NCBI GenBank assembly: GCA_018060515.1
Contig: JAGOVY010000001.1
Span: forward strand, 1 to 57,096
Origin: Anaerolineaceae bacterium
GTDB lineage: Bacteria; Chloroflexota; Anaerolineae; Anaerolineales; Anaerolineaceae
Direction: 5' to 3'
Length of the DNA stretch: 57,096 nt
In this document: positions 39,903-51,515 of the stretch, piece after piece
How the letters are laid out: each line of letters begins with the position of its first letter
Position numbering within the stretch: position 1 is the stretch's first letter
Made by a program: the position numbers and the translations under genes
The notes under the pieces: generated by a model
Told to the model about the DNA's origin: nothing
Databases searched by the model: none
The model's input: only the letters and a program-made list of their open reading frames with translations

Positions 39903-40712
39903 ATGGCAGGACAAAATATCGATCTGGCCAAGTTATTCGGCAATGTTGCGACAACCCTTGATGAGAATAAATCCACTTTGAACAAAGCGGATAGTTACAA
40001 TCATGATCATGGGGACAATATGGTGCAAATCTTCGAAGTGGTCACCCAGGCGGTAAAAGCAAAAAGCAACGCTACACCAGCTGAACAATTGGCATATGCC
40101 AGTGAACTTCTGCAGTCGAAAACTCAGAGCGGATCGGCAAAATTGTACGCCCAGGGGTTACAGGATGCCTCAAACAAATTTTCTGGACAAAAAGCAATCT
40201 CAGCCGAAAATGGCGTTCAACTGCTGCAAGCCTTAATGGGCACGCAAAACAAGGTAGCCCCTGAAACCCTAAAAACTCAGGTTAAGCAAAGTGCTAGCCA
40301 ACAGGCTGGTGCTGACTTATTAGGCTCGCTTCTCGGCGGTTTAGGTGGCGCATCTCAAAACCAGGCTGATGATGCCGGAGATATGTTGGGGTCACTTCTT
40401 GGCGGTTTGGTTGGTGGTCAGCAAAGCGCTACTGCGAACAACGGTGCCGGTGATTTGTTAGGTTCGCTCTTGGGCGGGCTTGCTGGTGGTTCAGGCGGAG
40501 ATGGACTCGCAGATGGCAAGCTGGATGTTGCCGATTTGCTTACTGCCGGAATGTCTTATATGCAGGCAAAGCAATCCGGCAGCACCGACCTGAATGCACT
40601 TCTCAGTGCTGTGATGGCTGGCAGCCGCATGGGTTCGCAGGATTATCGCACCCAATCAGGCACACTGGTGGCAAACACACTGCTACAAAGCCTCACAAAA
40701 ATGAAGAAATAA
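39903..40712 (+). CDS. DAK2(DhaL)-like N-terminal domain protein with a Gly/Leu repeat region
   Basis: LNKADSYNHDHGDNMVQIFEVV resembles the DhaL/DAK2 GDGDHGxNM motif. It is followed by three GDLLGSLLGGLxGG repeats. Confidence 0.55.
   Translation: MAGQNIDLAKLFGNVATTLDENKSTLNKADSYNHDHGDNMVQIFEVVTQAVKAKSNATPAEQLAYASELLQSKTQSGSAKLYAQGLQDASNKFSGQKAISAENGVQLLQALMGTQNKVAPETLKTQVKQSASQQAGADLLGSLLGGLGGASQNQADDAGDMLGSLLGGLVGGQQSATANNGAGDLLGSLLGGLAGGSGGDGLADGKLDVADLLTAGMSYMQAKQSGSTDLNALLSAVMAGSRMGSQDYRTQSGTLVANTLLQSLTKMKK
40308..40493 (+). repeat. in-frame tandem coding repeat (3 copies, ~20-24 codons each)
   Basis: GADLLGSLLGGLGGASQNQADDA / GDMLGSLLGGLVGGQQSATANNGA / GDLLGSLLGGLAGGSGGDG. Confidence 0.75.
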
Positions 40713-43865: not shown

Positions 43866-44603
43866 TTAGCGCTTCAGATGGACAAAATACTGGTAGCGGT
43901 CGCCGCGGTAGAGAATCTTCACGAATTCAACCGGTTTTCTCTCTTGCGAGAATAACAAGCGTTCATTCAATAATAAAGGCGCTCCAGCAGCAATATTCAA
44001 CAATGCCGCTTCTTCAGGTGTTGCCAGCGTCACTTCGAGCGTTTCATCCGCTTCTGTCGGGATGATGTGGAATTTTTCTGCCAGAATGCGATAGAGTGAA
44101 CCTGCCGCCGCCATTTCTTCAGTGGTTATTTGCTGATCATCTGCCAATACTAGGTAAGAAGTCTGTAAGCCGATCGGAACCCCATCACCGAGACGCACAC
44201 GCTCAATGCGATAAACCGTACTGCCTGGCGGCAGTTCCAGGCGCTGTAATACCCTCGGCGCCGGTTCCACCCGCTCAATGCTGCGGATGATTTGCCCGGG
44301 TTCAATGCCCCGCTTGGTCAGATCTTCTGAAAAACTGGTCAAGTCCATCCACCCTTTTTGCAGTTTTTTGGGCGAGACGAAAGTGCCCCGTCCCTGTTCA
44401 CGATAAAGATAGCCCTGCTGCACGAGAGAATCAATTGCCTCGCGCGTGGTCGTTCGGCTGACGTTATAGAGCTTCTCCAACTGGCGCTCAGATGGAATGG
44501 CGGCGCGCGGCGGCCATTCGCCATCTTCGATCTTTTGGCGTAAAATGGAAGCAAGCTGGTAATACTTTGGGATTATGTTATGAGGATCAACGGTTCTTGA
44601 CAT
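43866..44603 (-). CDS. GntR-family (HutC subfamily, UTRA effector domain) transcriptional regulator
   Basis: YYQLASILRQKIEDGEW...IPSERQLEKLYNVSRTTTREAIDSLVQQGYLYREQGRGTFV, plus a UTRA-like C-terminal half. It is divergent from the BMC operon. Confidence 0.87.
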   Translation of the reverse strand: MSRTVDPHNIIPKYYQLASILRQKIEDGEWPPRAAIPSERQLEKLYNVSRTTTREAIDSLVQQGYLYREQGRGTFVSPKKLQKGWMDLTSFSEDLTKRGIEPGQIIRSIERVEPAPRVLQRLELPPGSTVYRIERVRLGDGVPIGLQTSYLVLADDQQITTEEMAAAGSLYRILAEKFHIIPTEADETLEVTLATPEEAALLNIAAGAPLLLNERLLFSQERKPVEFVKILYRGDRYQYFVHLKR

Positions 44604-44616
44604 TTTTCCCTTGCGT

Positions 44617-44655
44617 GGTAAAATAACTCTATATTGGTAATGTGGTCATTACCAG
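44617..44655. promoter_or_regulatory. candidate GntR operator in the divergent intergenic region
   Basis: Perfect inverted repeat TGGTAATG-tggt-CATTACCA (44636-44655), plus an extra TGGTAA half-site at 44617-44622. Confidence 0.45.
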
Positions 44656-44707
44656 TTAGATTATCCGCCTTAATTCATGATTCGTCAAGAGTGGAGTGCC
44701 GCAATTC

Positions 44708-45337
44708 ATGAGCCAGGTTTCAGAAAACGACATCCATGAAATCGTCAAACGGGTCGTGCGCCTGACGCTCGGCAGCGATTCAGCCGCCTCTGCCCCCATT
44801 CAACAAGAAAAAACGCCGCTTTCAACCCCGGTGACAACTGTATCGGATCCTGTTAAAGATGTTCCGGCACAACGCGTGGTCGCCATCGGCACAGACCATG
44901 GCGGTGTAGAAATGAAGAAAATTCTCATCAAAGACCTCACAGAAATGGGCTATAACGTGTTCGATTGCGGTACAAACTCAACCGAGCCGGTGGATTACCC
45001 CGACATTGCTTACGCGGTGGCATTACTGGTTGCGCAAGGAAAAGCCTGGCGCGGTGTAATCCTCGACGGTGCTGGAATCGGATCTTGTATGGCGGCGAAC
45101 AAAGTGCAGGGTATCCGCGCCGCGTTGTGCTATGATTATGCTACGGCGGTTAATAGCCGCGAACATAATGATGCCAACGTTCTCACACTTGGTGCCGGTT
45201 TGATTGGCAACAATCTCGCCAGACAAATTTTAAAGACATGGCTTGCCACTGAATTCGGCGGCGGCAGACATGCAAAACGCGTGGATAAAATAATGGAAAT
45301 TGAAACTAAACCTTACAACGACGGGATGAGGAAATGA
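44708..45337 (+). CDS. rpiB: RpiB/LacAB-family sugar-phosphate isomerase with a ~60-aa N-terminal extension (encapsulation-peptide-like helix plus Pro/Ser/Thr linker)
   Basis: Core [14 protein letters not shown]...[24 protein letters not shown]...[13 protein letters not shown]...GGRHAKRV. N-terminus [21 protein letters not shown] 44696 is an alternative start. Confidence 0.85.
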
Positions 45338-46248
45338 CACCGGATCTAAAGACGATTGAAACTCTGGTGGAAATCATCACCCGCGAGGTGCTATTGGCGA
45401 TGGTTGAAGAGGAGGAGAGACAGAAGAACCCTGCTGGAGCAACCTGCCTCATTGAAGTAGCTGATGGAGTTAAGGTAAAAACCTGCTTCGATAACGCTGG
45501 GCGCGTAATCAGCGCCGGCGCCGAACGGCTAACCTCTACTGTTGGCATCATCCCTGAAGATCATTCACTGGCAGGAATGATTGACCATACGTTGTTAAAA
45601 CCCGATGCAACCAGCGACAAAATCGCGCAATTATGTTTTGAAGCCCGAAAATACCATTTCGCTTCTGTATGTGTCAACCCAACACACGTAAAGCTATGCG
45701 CAGACTTATTGAAGGGTTCAGAAGTCAAAGTCTGTACGGTCATCGGCTTTCCACTTGGAGCCACCTCCGCCGAAGTCAAAGCTTTTGAGACTCGAAACGC
45801 ACTGGATAATGGCGCCACGGAGATCGACATGGTGATTAATATTGGCGCTCTCAAAGCAGGCGAAAATGCGCTCGTCGCTCGTGATATCCGCGGTGTGGTT
45901 GAGGTTGCTCACGCTGCCATGGCATTGGTAAAAGTGATCATCGAAACATCATTACTGACCGATGAAGAAAAAGTAATCGCCTGCCTGCTTGCCAAAGAAT
46001 CCGGAGCGGATTATGTGAAGACTTCAACAGGCTTTTCAGGTGGCGGAGCCACCGTGCACGACATCGCCTTGATGCGCCGCGCCGTCGGCCCGGGCTTAGG
46101 CGTCAAAGCTTCTGGCGGCATCCACACCCACGAAGAAGCCGAAGCATTGGTTGCCGCAGGGGCAACCCGCATTGGCGCCAGCGCCGGCGTAAAAATTATC
46201 CGCGCTGACCAAGCCGCAAACCCTGCACCACAGTCAAAGGCTTATTAA
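45334..46248 (+). CDS. deoC: deoxyribose-phosphate aldolase with a ~85-aa N-terminal extension carrying an encapsulation-peptide-like helix
   Basis: Core [11 protein letters not shown]...SVCVNP...[11 protein letters not shown]...EIDMVINIG...VKVIIET...[10 protein letters not shown]...VKASGGI (DeoC catalytic Lys context). N-terminus [22 protein letters not shown] overlap with rpiB. Confidence 0.9.
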
Positions 46249-46260
46249 CCGGAGGAGACT

Positions 46261-46551
46261 ATGCTGATCGCAAGAGTGATCGGAACCACGGTTTCGACAA
46301 TAAAAAACGAGAAACTTACCGGGCGGAAATTGCTCATTGTGCGCCAGACAGATGAGCATGGCGAGCCTGTCGGCAAGCCTTTCGTAGCGATTGATACCGT
46401 TGCCGCTGGCGTCGGCGACCTTGTGCTGACCGCTGCAGGTTCAAGCGCGCGCCAAACTGAAATCACCAAAGACACTCCGGTTGACGCGGTGATTATGGCG
46501 ATGATTGATTCATTGGAAGTAGACGGAAAAACAACATTCCGCAAGAGTTAA
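46261..46551 (+). CDS. BMC-P pentameric vertex shell protein (EutN/CcmL/PduN family), paralog 1
   Basis: MLIARVIGTTVSTIKNEKLTGRKLLIV...AIDTVAAGVGDLVLTAAGSSAR; 96 aa, preceded by GGAGGAG. Confidence 0.9.
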   Translation: MLIARVIGTTVSTIKNEKLTGRKLLIVRQTDEHGEPVGKPFVAIDTVAAGVGDLVLTAAGSSARQTEITKDTPVDAVIMAMIDSLEVDGKTTFRKS

Positions 46552-46555
46552 TAGT

Positions 46556-48019
46556 ATGGCTGATCTCGACCAGGATCTAATTTCTATTCAAGAAGCGCGC
46601 AACCTCGCCAGCCGGGCTTTTATCGCCTGGACGGAATGGTCGAAAGCCTCTCAGCAAGACGTCGATCGTGTCTGCGCAGCCATGGCTGCCGCCGCCTTTA
46701 ACGCCGCAGACCGCCTGGCGCAACTGGCACACGACGAAACAGGTTTTGGTCATGCGAGCCACAAACGCCTCAAAAACGAGTTTGCTGCACAGAATGTGTG
46801 GCAAAGTATTCGAGACGTCAAGACAGTCGGCGTCATCCAGCATGATGTTGAAAAGAAACTTTATCAGATTGCCTGGCCGATGGGTGTGGTCGCTGGGCTC
46901 ACCCCAAGCACCAACCCAACCTCAACGGTGATCTACAAAATTCTCATCGCCGTAAAAGCGCGTGATGCAATCGTCATTGCACCTCACCCTTCTGCCGCTC
47001 AATGCAGTTATGAAGCAGCCATGTTGATGGCAAAAGCCGCAGAAGAAAACGGCGCGCCGCAGGGTCTCGTCTCTTGTATGAGAAATGTCAGCCTTGCGGG
47101 CACGCAAGAACTGATGAATCACAAGTATGTTGCGCTCATCCTCGCCACCGGCGGCACCCCGATGGTGCGTGCGGCGCATTCCACCGGCAAACCTGCTATC
47201 GGCGTTGGCCCGGGGAACGTCCCGGCTTATGTGGATCGTTCGGCTGACCTCGAAAAAGCCGCCCGATACATCACCGCCAGCAAGGCGTTTGATTGCTCAA
47301 CCATCTGCGCCACTGAACAAGCGGTGGTAGCTGACAAACCAATTGCCCGGGCTTTACAGCAGTTAATGGAAAAAGAAGGCGCATTCTTCACTGATGAAAA
47401 TCAAACCAACCTGCTGCGCCAGCTGCTGTTTACTCAAGAAGGGGCGATGGTGTCTTCAACCGTGGGCAAACCCGCGCAATACCTGGCGGCCCTGGCAGGT
47501 TTTGACACTCCACCGGGAACCCGCGTTCTCGTCACCCGATTAAAGCGCGTCGGTAAAGAAGAAGCACTTTCGCGCGAAAAACTTACCACGGTACTTGGCT
47601 GGTATGAAGAAGAAGGCTGGGAAGCCGGCTGTGAACGCTGCATCGAGCTGATCCAGTTTGGCGGGCGCGGACATAGTTTGGTGATTCACGCCACCGATGA
47701 AAAGGTCATCATGGCATTCGGGCTTGAAAAACCCGTCTTTCGGATCGCTGTGAATACTATGTCTTCTCTGGGTGCCATAGGTTTGACCACCGGGGTATAC
47801 CCTTCGCTCACCCTTGGCGCAGGCGGCGTGGGTGGGTCAATCACAGGTGACAACGTCACTGTGCACCATTTATTCAATATCAAACGCCTCGCCTACGAAA
47901 CTACTTCTCCTCCACCCGCTGCACTCGCGCCGGCGAATTCAACAACTGGCGCTTCAACTCATGAAGTTGAACAGGCTGTGTGGAATGTTGTGCAGGAAAT
48001 ATTAAAATTACAAATCTAA
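46556..48019 (+). CDS. CoA-acylating aldehyde dehydrogenase (PduP/EutE class) with a C-terminal encapsulation-peptide-like helix
   Basis: [12 protein letters not shown]...PSTNPTST...ATGG...GPGNVPAY...ICATEQ (catalytic Cys context). The C-terminal tail is a [16 protein letters not shown] linker followed by [19 protein letters not shown]. Confidence 0.9.
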
Positions 48020-48043
48020 TTAAGTACCAGAAAGGATGAAGAA

Positions 48044-48373
48044 ATGGCATTAGATACAGCATTAATCGCGTTGGGAATGGTTGAGACCAAAGGACTTGTC
48101 GGCGCAGTAGAAGCAGCTGACGCAATGGTCAAAGCAGCAAACGTTGTCCTCATCGGTTCAGAGTATGTGGGCGGCGGTTTCGTCACAGTGATGGTGCGTG
48201 GTGATGTCGGCGCCGTTAAGGCTGCCACTGATGCCGGCGCTGCTGCTGCCAAACGTGTGGGTGAATTGGTTTCCGTTCATGTCATTCCACGCCCCCACCA
48301 GGATGTTGAGATGATTCTGCCGCAAAGCTCCAAAGGCAGCATCGGTGGCCGTGGATCTGAAGCCAAGAAATAA
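48044..48373 (+). CDS. BMC-H hexameric shell protein (PduA/EutM/CcmK class, Pfam00936-type)
   Basis: [77 protein letters not shown]. Confidence 0.93.
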
Positions 48374-48388
48374 ACACGGCTTTCACAC

Positions 48389-49255
48389 GTGACATCCGTA
48401 CGTCTGACAACTGCGGCAGCTGACCCGCTGACTTGGCTTGCCCGCGCCGAACAAGTATTCCATCTCAACCCAGATGGCCGGGCTGCCTCACTCCACGCGC
48501 CGCCTGAAGGCGCGCTGCGTGTGGGCGTAGATTTGGGCACCGCCTACACGGTAATCGTGGTATTAGACAGCGCCGGAACACCTTTGGCAGGTGAATATCA
48601 GTTTGCCCAGGTGGTGCGCGACGGTTTGGTCGTAGACTTTTTTGGCGCAGTGAACCTGCTTCAATCACTCAAACAGAAAGTTGAAGATCGCCTCGGCAGA
48701 AAGCTCAGCAGCGCGGTTAGCGCATACCCCCCGGGTGTGCCGCGGGCAGATGCCCGAGCCGCAGCCAGTGTGCTGGAAGCTTCTGGTTTGAGATGCAAAG
48801 CGCTGCTGCCAGAACCCGAAGCTGCGAACCATGTCTTGGGCATTCGGGATGGTGTCATTGTAGATATCGGCGGCGGCACTACTGGCATCGCCGTGCTTGA
48901 AAATGGCAAAGTGACTTATACGGCAGATGAAGCCACCGGCGGAACGCACTTCAGCCTGGTGATTGCCGGCGCCACTGGCCTAAGCCTGGAAGAAGCGGAA
49001 GTATTGAAACGCAACCCCGATCAGCAGAAACAGCTTTACCCTCTGGTGCGCCCTGTGATGGAAAAAATTGGCACAATCATTGAACATCACATCCGCGGCA
49101 GCCAGCCCTCAATGATCACATTGGTTGGCGGTACGGCTCTCTTCCCGGGTATTGCAGCCGTAATCGAAGAAGTAACCGGAATTCCAACACAGGTTCCAGC
49201 GCACCCTTTGTTTGTTACCCCACTGGGCATTGCACTCGCAGATACAGGCGAGTGA
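48389..49255 (+). CDS. eutJ: EutJ-like actin/Hsp70-fold protein
   Basis: GVDLGTAYTVIVVLD...VVDIGGGTTGIAVLENG...EATGGTHFS...VGGTALFPGI. The GTG start at 48389 has no clear SD. Confidence 0.8.
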   Translation: MTSVRLTTAAADPLTWLARAEQVFHLNPDGRAASLHAPPEGALRVGVDLGTAYTVIVVLDSAGTPLAGEYQFAQVVRDGLVVDFFGAVNLLQSLKQKVEDRLGRKLSSAVSAYPPGVPRADARAAASVLEASGLRCKALLPEPEAANHVLGIRDGVIVDIGGGTTGIAVLENGKVTYTADEATGGTHFSLVIAGATGLSLEEAEVLKRNPDQQKQLYPLVRPVMEKIGTIIEHHIRGSQPSMITLVGGTALFPGIAAVIEEVTGIPTQVPAHPLFVTPLGIALADTGE

Positions 49256-49268
49256 TTCAGGAGGCAGG

Positions 49269-49895
49269 ATGATTGAAGATTTTTCATTACGTTGTTACTG
49301 TTTTATTGATCGTATGCAGGCACAATATGCCGCCTTTGTCGGCACTATCACACAAGGCGACCTGCCCGTGGAAGGGATGGCGGCTCTTTATGTTGAGATG
49401 GCGCCTGGAAACGAAGTTTTCAGGGTAGTGGATATTGCCGTCAAAGCCACAGAGTCCAAGCCTGGCGCCCAAATCGTAGAACGCGAATTCGGCATGTTTG
49501 AAGTGCATTCGCTCAACCAGGCTGCGGTCATCGAAGCCGGCCAGGTAGTACTCGACAGACTGGGATTAAAGAAAGAAGACCGTATCAAGCCTGAGGTGGT
49601 TTCTACCCAGGTGATTACGCGCATCGATCCCTACCAATCACAGCTCATCAACCGCTTCAGGCGCGGCAGCATGCTTGTGCCAGGCGAGACCATGCTCGTG
49701 CTGGAATGTGCTCCAGCTGCCTACATTAATTATGCGGTTAATGAAGCTGAGAAAAACGCGAATATCAAAATTATCCATGTGTCCTCCGTTGGCCGTTATG
49801 GCAGGATGTGGCTCTCAGGCACTGAATCTGAGATTATCAATGCTAAAAATGCCGCCACAAGCGCTTTGGAAAGCCTGGAAGGAATTAGAGGATAG
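49269..49895 (+). CDS. tandem-domain BMC-T shell protein of the CsoS1D/CcmP (double-stacking, permuted) type
   Basis: Start at ATG 49269 after AGGAGG. LRCYCFIDRMQAQYAAFVGTITQGDLPVEGMAALYVEMAPGNEVFRVVDIAVKATESKPGAQIVEREFGMFEVHS and ...LVLECAPAAYINYAVNEAEKNANIKIIHVSSVGRYGRMWLSG parallel the two domains of CsoS1D as I recall them. Confidence 0.78.
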   Translation: MIEDFSLRCYCFIDRMQAQYAAFVGTITQGDLPVEGMAALYVEMAPGNEVFRVVDIAVKATESKPGAQIVEREFGMFEVHSLNQAAVIEAGQVVLDRLGLKKEDRIKPEVVSTQVITRIDPYQSQLINRFRRGSMLVPGETMLVLECAPAAYINYAVNEAEKNANIKIIHVSSVGRYGRMWLSGTESEIINAKNAATSALESLEGIRG

Positions 49896-49926
49896 CACAA
49901 GGTCAACCCTGCTACAGGAGCAATTT

Positions 49927-50280
49927 ATGGCGAAACAATTTTTCACTGAACGTGATATCGAAGAACTTGCTGCCCGCGGAGAGAAGACGCTGCAGGTTAC
50001 TGAAGAGGTGGTATTAACCGAATTGGCCTATGAAAAAGCTGAAAAGCTGGGTGTCCGTCTGCTGCAAGCCCATCAACTGCCGCCGGCTGCACCCGTAAGG
50101 CCGTATCTGTCGCAGCCTCCGTGCGCTTGTACATCACCTGGCGCGCCTCAATCAGGTGATCCCGCAGACCTGCGCCAACGCATCCGTGATGCTGTCACAT
50201 TAAAACTGGGAGCCCAGGTTGACCCCCTACTGCTTGACACAATAATCACGCGGGTTCTCAACAACGTGGGAATGAAGTAA
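49927..50280 (+). CDS. 117-aa BMC-locus protein of unknown function; N-terminal FTERDIxxL...LTxxAxxKAxxLGVRL module, Pro-rich linker, C-terminal amphipathic helix
   Basis: Start at ATG 49927 after AGGAG; the longer ORF-track version (49675) overlaps the BMC-T gene out of frame. Sequence: MAKQFFTERDIEELAARGEKTLQVTEEVVLTELAYEKAEKLGVRLLQAHQLPPAAPVRPYLSQPP...DPLLLDTIITRVLNNVGMK. Confidence 0.65.
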   Translation: MAKQFFTERDIEELAARGEKTLQVTEEVVLTELAYEKAEKLGVRLLQAHQLPPAAPVRPYLSQPPCACTSPGAPQSGDPADLRQRIRDAVTLKLGAQVDPLLLDTIITRVLNNVGMK

Positions 50281-50282
50281 AC

Positions 50283-50603
50283 ATGCTTTTTGGTCGTGTC
50301 CACGGTACAGCGGTTTGTACTGTCAAGGCTGCCGGCCTTGAGGGGATAAAACTGCTCATCGTTCAACCACTTAACCGCAATCTCGAACCTACCGGCAGCT
50401 TGCAGGTGGCAGCAGATGTGGTACAAGCTGGTGCTGGTGATTTATGCGTGATGGTGCGAGCCCGCGAAGCAGCCCTGGCTATGCCTGAGGTTAAGTTTGT
50501 TCCGGTCGATTTGGCACTGATCGGAATAGTCGATGAGTTAGCCGTGATGCCTGATGGAAAATCAGATTTAGTCATGAAAAAAGGCACTACGGGTTACTCA
50601 TAG
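50283..50603 (+). CDS. BMC-P vertex protein, paralog 2 (with a ~20-aa C-terminal extension)
   Basis: MLFGRVHGTAVCTVKAAGLEGIKLLIVQP...AADVVQAGAGDLCVMV...LALIGIVDEL. Confidence 0.85.
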   Translation: MLFGRVHGTAVCTVKAAGLEGIKLLIVQPLNRNLEPTGSLQVAADVVQAGAGDLCVMVRAREAALAMPEVKFVPVDLALIGIVDELAVMPDGKSDLVMKKGTTGYS

Positions 50604-50610
50604 GGTTAAC

Positions 50611-50880
50611 ATGATTCTGGCAAAAGTTGTTGGCACTGTCGTAACTACCATCAGCCACGCGCATTACAAACAGCGCCGTTTGCTCGTAGTTCAGCCGCTC
50701 GTCACGGAGGGCGAAACGCCCGATGAAGATTTCATTGCCATCGATAGCACCCATGCTGGCATTGGAGATACGGTGCTTATCAACCGCGAAGGCAACGGTG
50801 CGCGTCAGGTGCTGAACAACCCTGACGCCTGTATCATCTCGGTGATTGTCGGCATCGTTGATTCTGTAACGTTGCCCTGA
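50611..50880 (+). CDS. BMC-P vertex protein, paralog 3
   Basis: MILAKVVGTVVTTISHAHYKQRRLLVVQPL...AIDSTHAGIGDTVLINREGNGARQ...VIVGIVDSV. Confidence 0.88.
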   Translation: MILAKVVGTVVTTISHAHYKQRRLLVVQPLVTEGETPDEDFIAIDSTHAGIGDTVLINREGNGARQVLNNPDACIISVIVGIVDSVTLP

Positions 50881-51125: not shown

Positions 51126-51515
51126 TTACTTAAAATTTTCCACCAAATATTGAACCAACAGCTCTTTTTCTTCATCGCTGAGTACTGCGCCGCGACCGAT
51201 CATTTCGGCTACAATGGCTTCCCATTCAGCGGCAGTAGCCGTCTTGGATGTGACCTTCGAGGTTGAATGACAGACAGAGCATCTTGAATCCAACAATTCT
51301 GCGCCATCAATTGCAGGCGGCGTATTGGCGGGAGGTTGAAGAGTTGTTGAATCTTTCGTTGATAAATCTGCCGTGCCTGTTGCGAGAATGGGGAAATCGG
51401 ATGAGGAGAGAGTCGGTTGCTGCCCATTCTGGGTGGGTAGGGGAACTTCAGCTCTGGTACACGCACTCAAGACGAAAAGGAATAAGATCGCCAGAAGGAG
51501 TAAATTTCTATTCAC
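51126..51515 (-). CDS. small lipoprotein with a single c-type haem-binding motif
   Basis: Lipobox LSAC and a Thr/Pro-rich linker. CSVCH (CxxCH) is followed by TAAEWEAIVAEMIGRGAVLSDEEKELLVQYL. This resembles the haem domain of quinohaemoprotein amine dehydrogenase-type mono-haem modules. Confidence 0.68.
   Translation of the reverse strand: MNRNLLLLAILFLFVLSACTRAEVPLPTQNGQQPTLSSSDFPILATGTADLSTKDSTTLQPPANTPPAIDGAELLDSRCSVCHSTSKVTSKTATAAEWEAIVAEMIGRGAVLSDEEKELLVQYLVENFK

Follow-up and report, generated by a model that had tools for sequence, protein, structure and literature searches.

A 57,096-nucleotide stretch of DNA from an Anaerolineaceae bacterium (contig JAGOVY010000001.1; hereafter the window) contains, at positions 43866-50880, what by gene content is an SPU6 (sugar-phosphate-utilising) microcompartment operon, an ordinary representative of those of Anaerolineae-type Chloroflexota. 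We found that a 117-residue protein encoded in this operon is, as judged by profile comparison, a stand-alone, cupin-less homologue of the N-terminal region (residues 1-99) of EutQ. The original prediction, made from the sequence of this DNA, was that four proteins of the operon carry terminal amphipathic helices resembling encapsulation peptides (EPs): the RpiB-family protein RPI, the deoxyribose-5-phosphate aldolase DERA (DeoC), the acylating acetaldehyde dehydrogenase AldDh and the 117-residue protein. For the three enzymes this reading matches a published description of SPU6 (Dwyer, Sutter & Kerfeld 2024, PMC11585597), and because it rediscovers features already in print, the finding as first posed adds little; the new part is the assignment of the 117-residue protein to the EutQ N-terminal family. 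In the explanation that we consider the best, and probably correct, the operon encodes three EP-tagged cargos together with an EutQ-N-like adaptor, the 117-residue protein. The C-terminal helix of this protein was probably read in the wrong direction: it is more likely to be a receptor of tags than a tag itself, because it aligns with the EP-binding helix H4 of EutQ and the equivalents of EutQ residues L89 and V93 within it are invariant.

The sole NCBIfam profile matched by the 117-residue protein is NF012001 (EutQ, 233 positions), and the match (E=4e-4) spans positions 2-98, which precede the cupin domain. When the protein was compared with E. coli EutQ in hhalign, the probability was 72%. 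With larger alignments, comprising 241 sequences of the 117-residue family and 69 EutQ N-terminal sequences, the probability was 95.5% (E=1.6e-8), and the alignment was collinear over 96 columns that pair residues 3-112 with EutQ residues 2-99; a control with the reversed EutQ alignment gave E=0.6. The N-terminal domain by itself was matched to EutQ 2-46 with a probability of 92.5% (E=5e-7). An AlphaFold2 (AF2) model of the protein has a mean predicted local distance difference test score (pLDDT) of 75.5 (84-89 in the N-terminal domain and 70-81 in the C-terminal helices), and places helices at residues 8-16 and 32-41, a disordered segment at 48-78, and two further helices at 79-97 and 100-113. 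No catalytic core or enzyme domain was found in this protein by Pfam, NCBIfam and PDB sequence searches, and phmmer against PDB sequences returned noise only. Because it has no Pfam match, ends at residue 117 and lacks the cupin, the protein does not belong to the EutQ family (PF06249) in the Pfam sense.

In the Eut microcompartment of Salmonella, EutQ(1-99) links the shell to the cargo (Yang et al. 2025, PMC12487888). The EutM/EutL interface of the shell is bound by helices H1/H2, the flexible region that follows is also required, and H3/H4, which form an aggregation-prone region much as EPs do, bind the EPs of EutC and EutE with micromolar affinity, an interaction that is abolished by the substitutions L89A and V93A. 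The first 100 residues of EutQ are likewise needed for EutM binding (Held et al. 2016, PMC4827028). L89 and V93 of Salmonella EutQ align with I106 and V110 of the 117-residue protein, both of which lie within the flagged helix (LLLDTIITRVLNNV, residues 101-114, 50227-50268, in the H4 region) and are 100% conserved in 81 sequences. Homology to EutQ(1-99) of Salmonella and E. coli is collinear over both modules, the AF2 model shows the same succession of helix-containing N-terminal domain, flexible region and H3/H4 hairpin, a QRIR(D/E)A motif is shared in addition to the conserved hydrophobic residues, and the cargo encoded by the same operon carries tags resembling those of EutC and EutE. Unlike EutQ, the 117-residue protein stands alone without the cupin/acetate kinase domain (PF06249) and is encoded in an SPU rather than an Eut operon. 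It also differs in having a strongly conserved linker motif, LPPAAPVRPYLS, at residues 51-62 (50077-50112), in which P53, P56, R58, P59 and Y60 are invariant. This segment, possibly a short linear motif that binds the shell, is followed by a variable Cys-containing stretch, often with CxxC.

The 117-residue protein has more than 516 close homologues, all lacking a Pfam match, and its family comprises 441 clusters at 50% identity. Family members have one to three N-terminal domains and always one C-terminal hairpin: relatives of 220-255 residues (P0172, P0177, P0202, P0229, P0233, P0265 and P0268) combine two or three tandem N-terminal domains with a single hairpin. The gene of one of these, P0172, immediately follows a separate gene for an EutQ cupin (PF06249) (L082:2-472 and 479-1216); the contigs of the multi-domain homologues are 1-2 kb long, and this adjacent gene is the only context result they provide. 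The multi-domain relatives and the EutQ-cupin neighbor fit a modular adaptor. If such an adaptor family exists, it would number at least 441 sequence clusters, with linkers of variable length and with one to three putative shell-binding domains per member.

All six peptide segments quoted in the original prediction occur exactly at the termini it had named, namely residues 8-21 of 209 in RPI, residues 7-24 and 38-66 of 304 in DERA, residues 452-467 and 471-487 of 487 in AldDh, and residues 101-114 of 117 in the small protein. Alignment with stand-alone RpiB, DERA and AldDh structures confirms that the enzyme segments are extensions outside the catalytic domains. These extensions are conserved in 61-66 syntenic Anaerolineae loci, from which sequences were extracted in frame; with the 117-residue protein included, the helices are conserved in 61-81 loci, in frame and from the same start positions. 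The supposed common architecture of helix, Pro/Ser/Thr/Ala-rich linker and catalytic core holds for RPI, whose linker is hypervariable, and in part for AldDh, whose linker keeps a PPxAA motif. It does not hold for DERA, in which the extension is conserved throughout, or for the 117-residue protein, which has no core.

RPI begins at the ATG at 44708, within a longer 213-residue open reading frame (ORF) that starts with GTG at 44696; PF02502 matches residues 62-199 of the latter, corresponding to residues 58-195 in 209-residue numbering. The RpiB core begins at residues 56-58, which align with residues 1-3 of stand-alone RpiB structures in the PDB, and the N-terminal extension relative to solved stand-alone enzymes is 55 residues long. 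Its helix has a hydrophobic moment of 0.93 (rank 1 within the protein) and the consensus xSDxxIHxIVxRVVxQTLG across 63 sequences (62 related loci and the window), and resembles the N terminus of E. coli EutE (QDIEQVVKAVLL, with DIEQVVKAVL; EutE begins MNQQDIEQVVKAVLLKM). The linker had been estimated at about 40 residues but spans about 33, has conservation scores of 1-3 on a 0-9 scale, and varies in length among the 63 sequences. The N-terminal EP of SPU RPIs has been described as typical, and their linker as unstructured (Dwyer et al. 2024). The same study reports a Cys-to-Asp change in all SPU RPIs and negligible isomerase activity of the SPU6 enzyme. This change is present in the window, where ILDGAG, within the motif ILDGAGIG, aligns with VICGTG of solved RpiB and replaces the catalytic Cys with Asp. 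RPI is thus probably catalytically inactive and, because the published SPU6 RPI had negligible activity, may be mainly structural.

The start codon of DERA overlaps the stop codon of RPI. TIGR00126 matches residues 79-289, and alignment with PDB sequences places the beginning of the core at residue 77, opposite residue 3 of stand-alone enzymes, leaving an N-terminal extension of about 75 residues. The catalytic residues D165, K229 and K258, numbered as in the enzyme characterized by Dwyer et al., are invariant. All SPU DERAs carry an N-terminal extension of about 70 residues that is absent from DERAs not associated with microcompartments; its elements are an amphipathic helix about 25-30 residues long and two beta strands, and it causes aggregation when expressed and yields soluble enzyme once deleted (Dwyer et al. 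2024). Accordant with this description, AF2 places a helix at residues 5-31 of the window protein and strands at 37-43, 46-52 and 58-65; the input alignment was shallow (83-91% identity), and the model supports only this secondary-structure outline. The helix consensus is near-invariant in 66 sequences. The roughly 40 residues noted between helix and core are present, but they are not a flexible linker: residues 32-76 are conserved across the same 66 sequences and form a Cys-containing beta element. C38 and C51 (45445-45486) are invariant in the clade of the window, and deeper-branching loci (L050 and L064-L080) have four Cys in this element, arranged as CX3CX4CX3C (for example, FCTQECAEGLCVNTCFD). 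The Cys residues may form a metal or disulfide site. The text of Dwyer et al. makes no mention of this pattern. In the annotation of the source contig, DERA (P0511) has 223 residues and starts at Met82 (45577), and the whole extension is therefore omitted. That automated annotation misses such extensions as a systematic error has been pointed out (Dwyer et al. 2024), and the window illustrates this known point.

AldDh matches the solved enzymes 5j78 and 3k9d (E down to 1e-136, residues 5-446/453). Its core ends at about residues 446-453 of 487, and it has no N-terminal extension. A conserved C-terminal extension of 38 residues relative to the solved stand-alone enzymes includes a helix with the consensus PSxxEIExxVRSVVxEIL in 61 sequences, the core of which (EIExxVRSVVxEIL) closely resembles the EP of E. 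coli EutC (QIEEIVRSVMASM, with QIEEIVRSVM; EutC begins MDQKQIEEIVRSVMASMGQ). A C-terminal EP has been reported for SPU6 AldDh, in contrast to the N-terminal EPs of other subtypes (Dwyer et al. 2024). The PPxAA(L/M) sequence in the linker of AldDh is similar to LPPAAPVRPYLS of the 117-residue protein.

Compared with classical EPs (residues 1-18 of PduP and PduD, 1-19 of EutC and 1-20 of EutE, and the CcmN C terminus), the window tags are likewise short putative amphipathic helices at a terminus, clearest in RPI, with hydrophobic residues spaced i, i+3/4, i+7/8. A poorly conserved linker separates helix and domain in RPI and, less clearly, in AldDh, and the AldDh consensus is near-identical to the EutC tag. 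Two features depart from the classical pattern: the DERA helix is longer (about 27 residues) and leads into a conserved structured element instead of a linker, and the tagged proteins include an aldolase and an isomerase-like protein. Among 57 ORFs of the window, a strict amphipathic 9-mer pattern has five matches, of which only those in RPI and the 117-residue protein (LDTIITRVL in the latter) are terminal, against 0.31 terminal matches expected (P=0.03); the helices of DERA and AldDh are missed because each has one deviating residue. This pattern replaced a hydrophobic-only 9-mer pattern, which was non-specific, with 80 matches in the window, mostly in membrane helices. Hydrophobic moments of the candidates are 0.34-0.70, compared with 0.23-0.53 for the proven EPs of EutC, PduP and PduD. 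The moment is a weak measure by itself: the proven EPs do not outscore the candidates, and RPI alone is conspicuous. We do not use it as main evidence.

From the gene content, the extensions, their conservation and the EutQ N-terminal homology, we infer the binding events and their polarity as follows. AldDh would convert acetaldehyde into acetyl-CoA inside a shell built of BMC-H, a CcmP-like BMC-T and three BMC-P proteins. The tags of RPI, DERA and AldDh would dock by their hydrophobic faces onto the H3/H4 hairpin of the 117-residue protein, including LLLDTIITRVLNNV, while the N-terminal domain of this protein, perhaps together with LPPAAPVRPYLS, would bind the BMC-H/BMC-T shell. In this way the adaptor would tether a DERA-RPI-AldDh core to the shell.

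Several points weigh against this explanation. The polarity, with the N-terminal domain facing the shell and the hairpin facing the tags, is borrowed from a distantly related protein of Salmonella. Taken by itself, the H3/H4 module has a weak match to EutQ (E=0.004, probability 8.6%), albeit at the correct position, aligned to EutQ 68-99 and sharing the QRIR(D/E)A motif. Because this separate match is weak, equating the flagged helix with EutQ H4 rests on collinearity and the short shared motif. A Foldseek search of the PDB with the AF2 model of the 117-residue protein returned nothing at E<=0.001, the top hits being fragments of 40-50 residues of unrelated proteins. Against shuffled sequences, the moments (0.34-0.45) of the helices in DERA, AldDh and the 117-residue protein are not significant (P=0.06-0.15), and the DERA extension is modelled with pLDDT <50. 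The experiments of Dwyer et al. that bear on SPU6 tags comprise only the insolubility caused by the DERA extension and a complex of RPI with truncated DERA.

The main alternative, in line with the original prediction, is that all four helices are cargo EPs. The 117-residue protein would then be small and lumenal, with a C-terminal helix that attaches to the shell in the manner of CcmN and an N-terminal domain that binds something else. Its helix is indeed terminal and preceded by a flexible region, the strict amphipathic pattern matches it, its hydrophobic spacing resembles that of the PduP and PduD tags, and EutQ H3/H4 shares with EPs a tendency to aggregate. However, homology to EutQ places the helix at H4, which binds EPs, whereas EutQ contacts the shell through H1/H2. 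There is no enzyme domain that the protein could deliver, and its relatives multiply the N-terminal domain and not the helix. We regard this alternative as unlikely.

A second alternative, which we hold to be improbable, is that the extensions mainly drive assembly of enzymes with one another, the 117-residue protein acting as a scaffold of the core without shell contact. Variants would have the extensions promote core condensation or a DERA-RPI-AldDh complex, or would make the DERA beta element a metal or redox site. Promotion of cargo aggregation is a known effect of EPs (Dwyer et al. 2024), the DERA extension does aggregate when expressed, and the conservation of its beta element is like that of a folded domain, with two Cys invariant in the window's clade and four Cys in deeper-branching members. 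Yet DERA truncated to lack its extension still forms a complex with RPI (Dwyer et al. 2024), and the domain of the 117-residue protein that is most clearly homologous to EutQ corresponds to the shell-binding half. Enzyme-enzyme assembly and tethering by an adaptor are not mutually exclusive.

That the helices are chance amphipathic segments or start-codon artefacts with no role in a microcompartment is very improbable: the hydrophobic-only pattern is common in the window and the source annotation starts DERA downstream of its extension, but the extensions are absent from all solved stand-alone homologues, their in-frame conservation from the same start positions in 61-81 loci effectively refutes the idea, and the truncated annotation exemplifies the systematic error noted above.

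The SPU6 assignment is based on the ORF listing together with Pfam and NCBIfam scans of the window. A single operon on the forward strand, with a divergent GntR/UTRA regulator gene upstream, has the order GntR/UTRA, RPI, DERA, BMC-P, AldDh, BMC-H, EutJ, BMC-T (CcmP-like), 117-residue protein, BMC-P, BMC-P (Table 1). The DeoC-type aldolase gene (PF01791, TIGR00126) adjoins a BMC-P gene, and the shell complement is one BMC-H, one BMC-Tdp and three BMC-P proteins, the third BMC-P being assigned by synteny and tblastn, plus the GntR/UTRA regulator. The BMC-T ORF as listed (49212-49895) uses a TTG start codon that lies within the end of EutJ; because the CcmP profile aligns only from residue 25, the true start is probably Met20 (49269).

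Table 1. Positions of the genes, protein segments and regulatory DNA of the SPU6 operon in the window (residue numbers refer to the encoded protein; flagged segments are those of the original prediction).
Feature	Positions	Strand	Assignment or remarks
GntR/UTRA-family regulator	43866..44603	-	PF00392 and PF07702; same regulator in the SPU6 locus of Dwyer et al. 2024
Promoter-like site and inverted repeat	44597..44654	+	between the GntR/UTRA gene and RPI
RPI, RpiB-family, 209 residues	44708..45337	+	PF02502
RPI EP helix	44720..44773	+	residues 5-22; flagged segment, residues 8-21, 44729-44770
RPI hypervariable Pro/Ser/Thr/Ala-rich linker	44774..44872	+	residues 23-55
DERA/DeoC, deoxyribose-5-phosphate aldolase, 304 residues	45334..46248	+	TIGR00126, PF01791
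DERA N-terminal long helix	45346..45426	+	residues 5-31; flagged segment, residues 7-24, 45352-45405
DERA conserved Cys-containing beta element, helix to TIM barrel	45427..45561	+	residues 32-76
BMC-P (EutN/CcmL) pentamer protein 1	46261..46551	+	PF03319
AldDh, acylating acetaldehyde dehydrogenase, 487 residues	46556..48019	+	TIGR02518; PDB 5j78, 3k9d
AldDh C-terminal linker	47903..47959	+	residues 450-468; semi-conserved PPxAA(L/M), then variable stretch
AldDh C-terminal EP helix	47960..48016	+	residues 469-487; flagged segment, residues 471-487, 47966-48016
BMC-H shell hexamer protein	48044..48373	+	PF00936
EutJ-family actin/Hsp70-like protein	48389..49255	+	NF011660, E=6e-102
BMC-T, tandem-domain, CcmP-like	49269..49895	+	NF053796 (CcmP), E=2e-75, residues 25-224
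117-residue protein	49927..50280	+	NF012001 (EutQ) positions 2-98, E=4e-4
117-residue protein, N-terminal domain	49927..50067	+	residues 1-47, beta-alpha-beta-beta-alpha-beta; similar to EutQ H1/H2; putative shell-binding module
117-residue protein, flexible region	50068..50160	+	residues 48-78
117-residue protein, C-terminal helices	50161..50268	+	H3 (residues 79-97) and H4 (residues 100-113); putative EP-binding module
BMC-P pentamer protein 2	50283..50603	+	PF03319
BMC-P pentamer protein 3	50611..50880	+	conserved last operon position by tblastn; EutN-like by eye

A relative of the 117-residue protein is encoded in 189 genomes (scanned at one genome per species), from which the 80 related loci of our comparison set were fetched. 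All but one of these loci (79/80) are records of Anaerolineae-type Chloroflexota. Most of the 80 share the gene order of the window, and the 117-residue gene of the syntenic operon is always flanked by BMC-T and BMC-P. Loci that are incomplete, owing to a cut contig or an undetected gene, keep the order except for ambiguous placement among the three similar BMC-P genes. Among related loci in which both flanking genes are present, 44/71 (~60%) have EutJ, and the gap between BMC-H and BMC-T is 802-978 nucleotides with EutJ and 28-240 nucleotides without it. The single exception in taxonomy (L079, JABCSI010000194.1), labelled as a Promethearchaeota archaeon, encodes a homologue of the 117-residue protein with 53% identity and is probably a mis-binned Chloroflexota contig. 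A shorter cluster (L086:7152-10140) consists of RPI, DERA, BMC-P, adaptor relative, BMC-P and BMC-P; the adaptor relative (P0150) has 171 residues and a linker of about 100 residues. Because AldDh, BMC-H and BMC-T genes are not found nearby, this may be a split or satellite locus.

The SPU6 gene set was described by Sutter et al. 2021 (PMC8217296) and Dwyer et al. 2024. The window shares with the published SPU6 locus (for example, that of Chloroflexi bacterium GWB2_54_36) the regulator, the gene set, the shell complement and the host clade (Chloroflexi/Anaerolineae), as well as the N-terminal EP, linker and Cys-to-Asp change of RPI, the C-terminal EP of AldDh, and the DERA extension of 70-75 residues with helix and beta strands and residues D165/K229/K258; it differs in having an EutJ gene. 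The targeting of an isomerase and an aldolase had been called unusual, which is true relative to Pdu and Eut systems. It is not an anomaly here, because it is the defining trait of SPU microcompartments, for which such packaging has been known since 2014 and 2021 (PMC8217296). An evolutionary tie between SPU6 and EUT3 loci was also noted earlier (Sutter et al. 2021). Dwyer et al. consider the two hypothetical proteins of their operon unrelated to microcompartment proteins, whereas we place the 117-residue one in the EutQ N-terminal family. EutQ is not mentioned in the text of that study, Yang et al. mention EutQ homologues in GRM loci only, and none of the papers in the library searched mentions EutQ together with sugar-phosphate utilisation or Anaerolineae.

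We see an even chance that SPU6, and probably other types too, uses a dedicated minimal adaptor, a stand-alone and cupin-less EutQ-N module, which bridges shell tiles to the EPs of several cargos. If so, linker-mediated assembly of the EutQ type would be a general modular principle of metabolosome biogenesis rather than a peculiarity of enteric Eut systems, and a hypothetical protein of the published SPU6 operon would be an assembly factor. The EutQ-N assignment gives a concrete assembly model for a type of microcompartment that ranks among the most widespread and the least studied, and suggests that the mechanism described in Salmonella in 2025 is general. A small natural adaptor with three matched tags might also be of use in engineering the cargo loading of SPU shells.

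Upstream of RPI, a promoter-like site (TTGACA-16-TAAAAT, TG-extended, 11/12 matches) is followed directly at its 3' side by a perfect inverted repeat, TGGTAATG-N4-CATTACCA, at 44635-44654. The same DNA is found upstream of RPI in related loci, where it was seen as a translation artefact, GNVV(I/T)TSYIIRHF. The repeat is a probable operator of the GntR regulator. Just downstream of the operon, positions 51126-51515 (reverse strand) encode a small protein, possibly a c-type cytochrome, that combines a signal- or lipoprotein-like N terminus with a CSVCH (CxxCH) motif. Farther upstream, at 39903-40712 (forward strand), a 269-residue protein contains three copies of the repeat G(D)(L/M)LGSLLGGL(x)GG.

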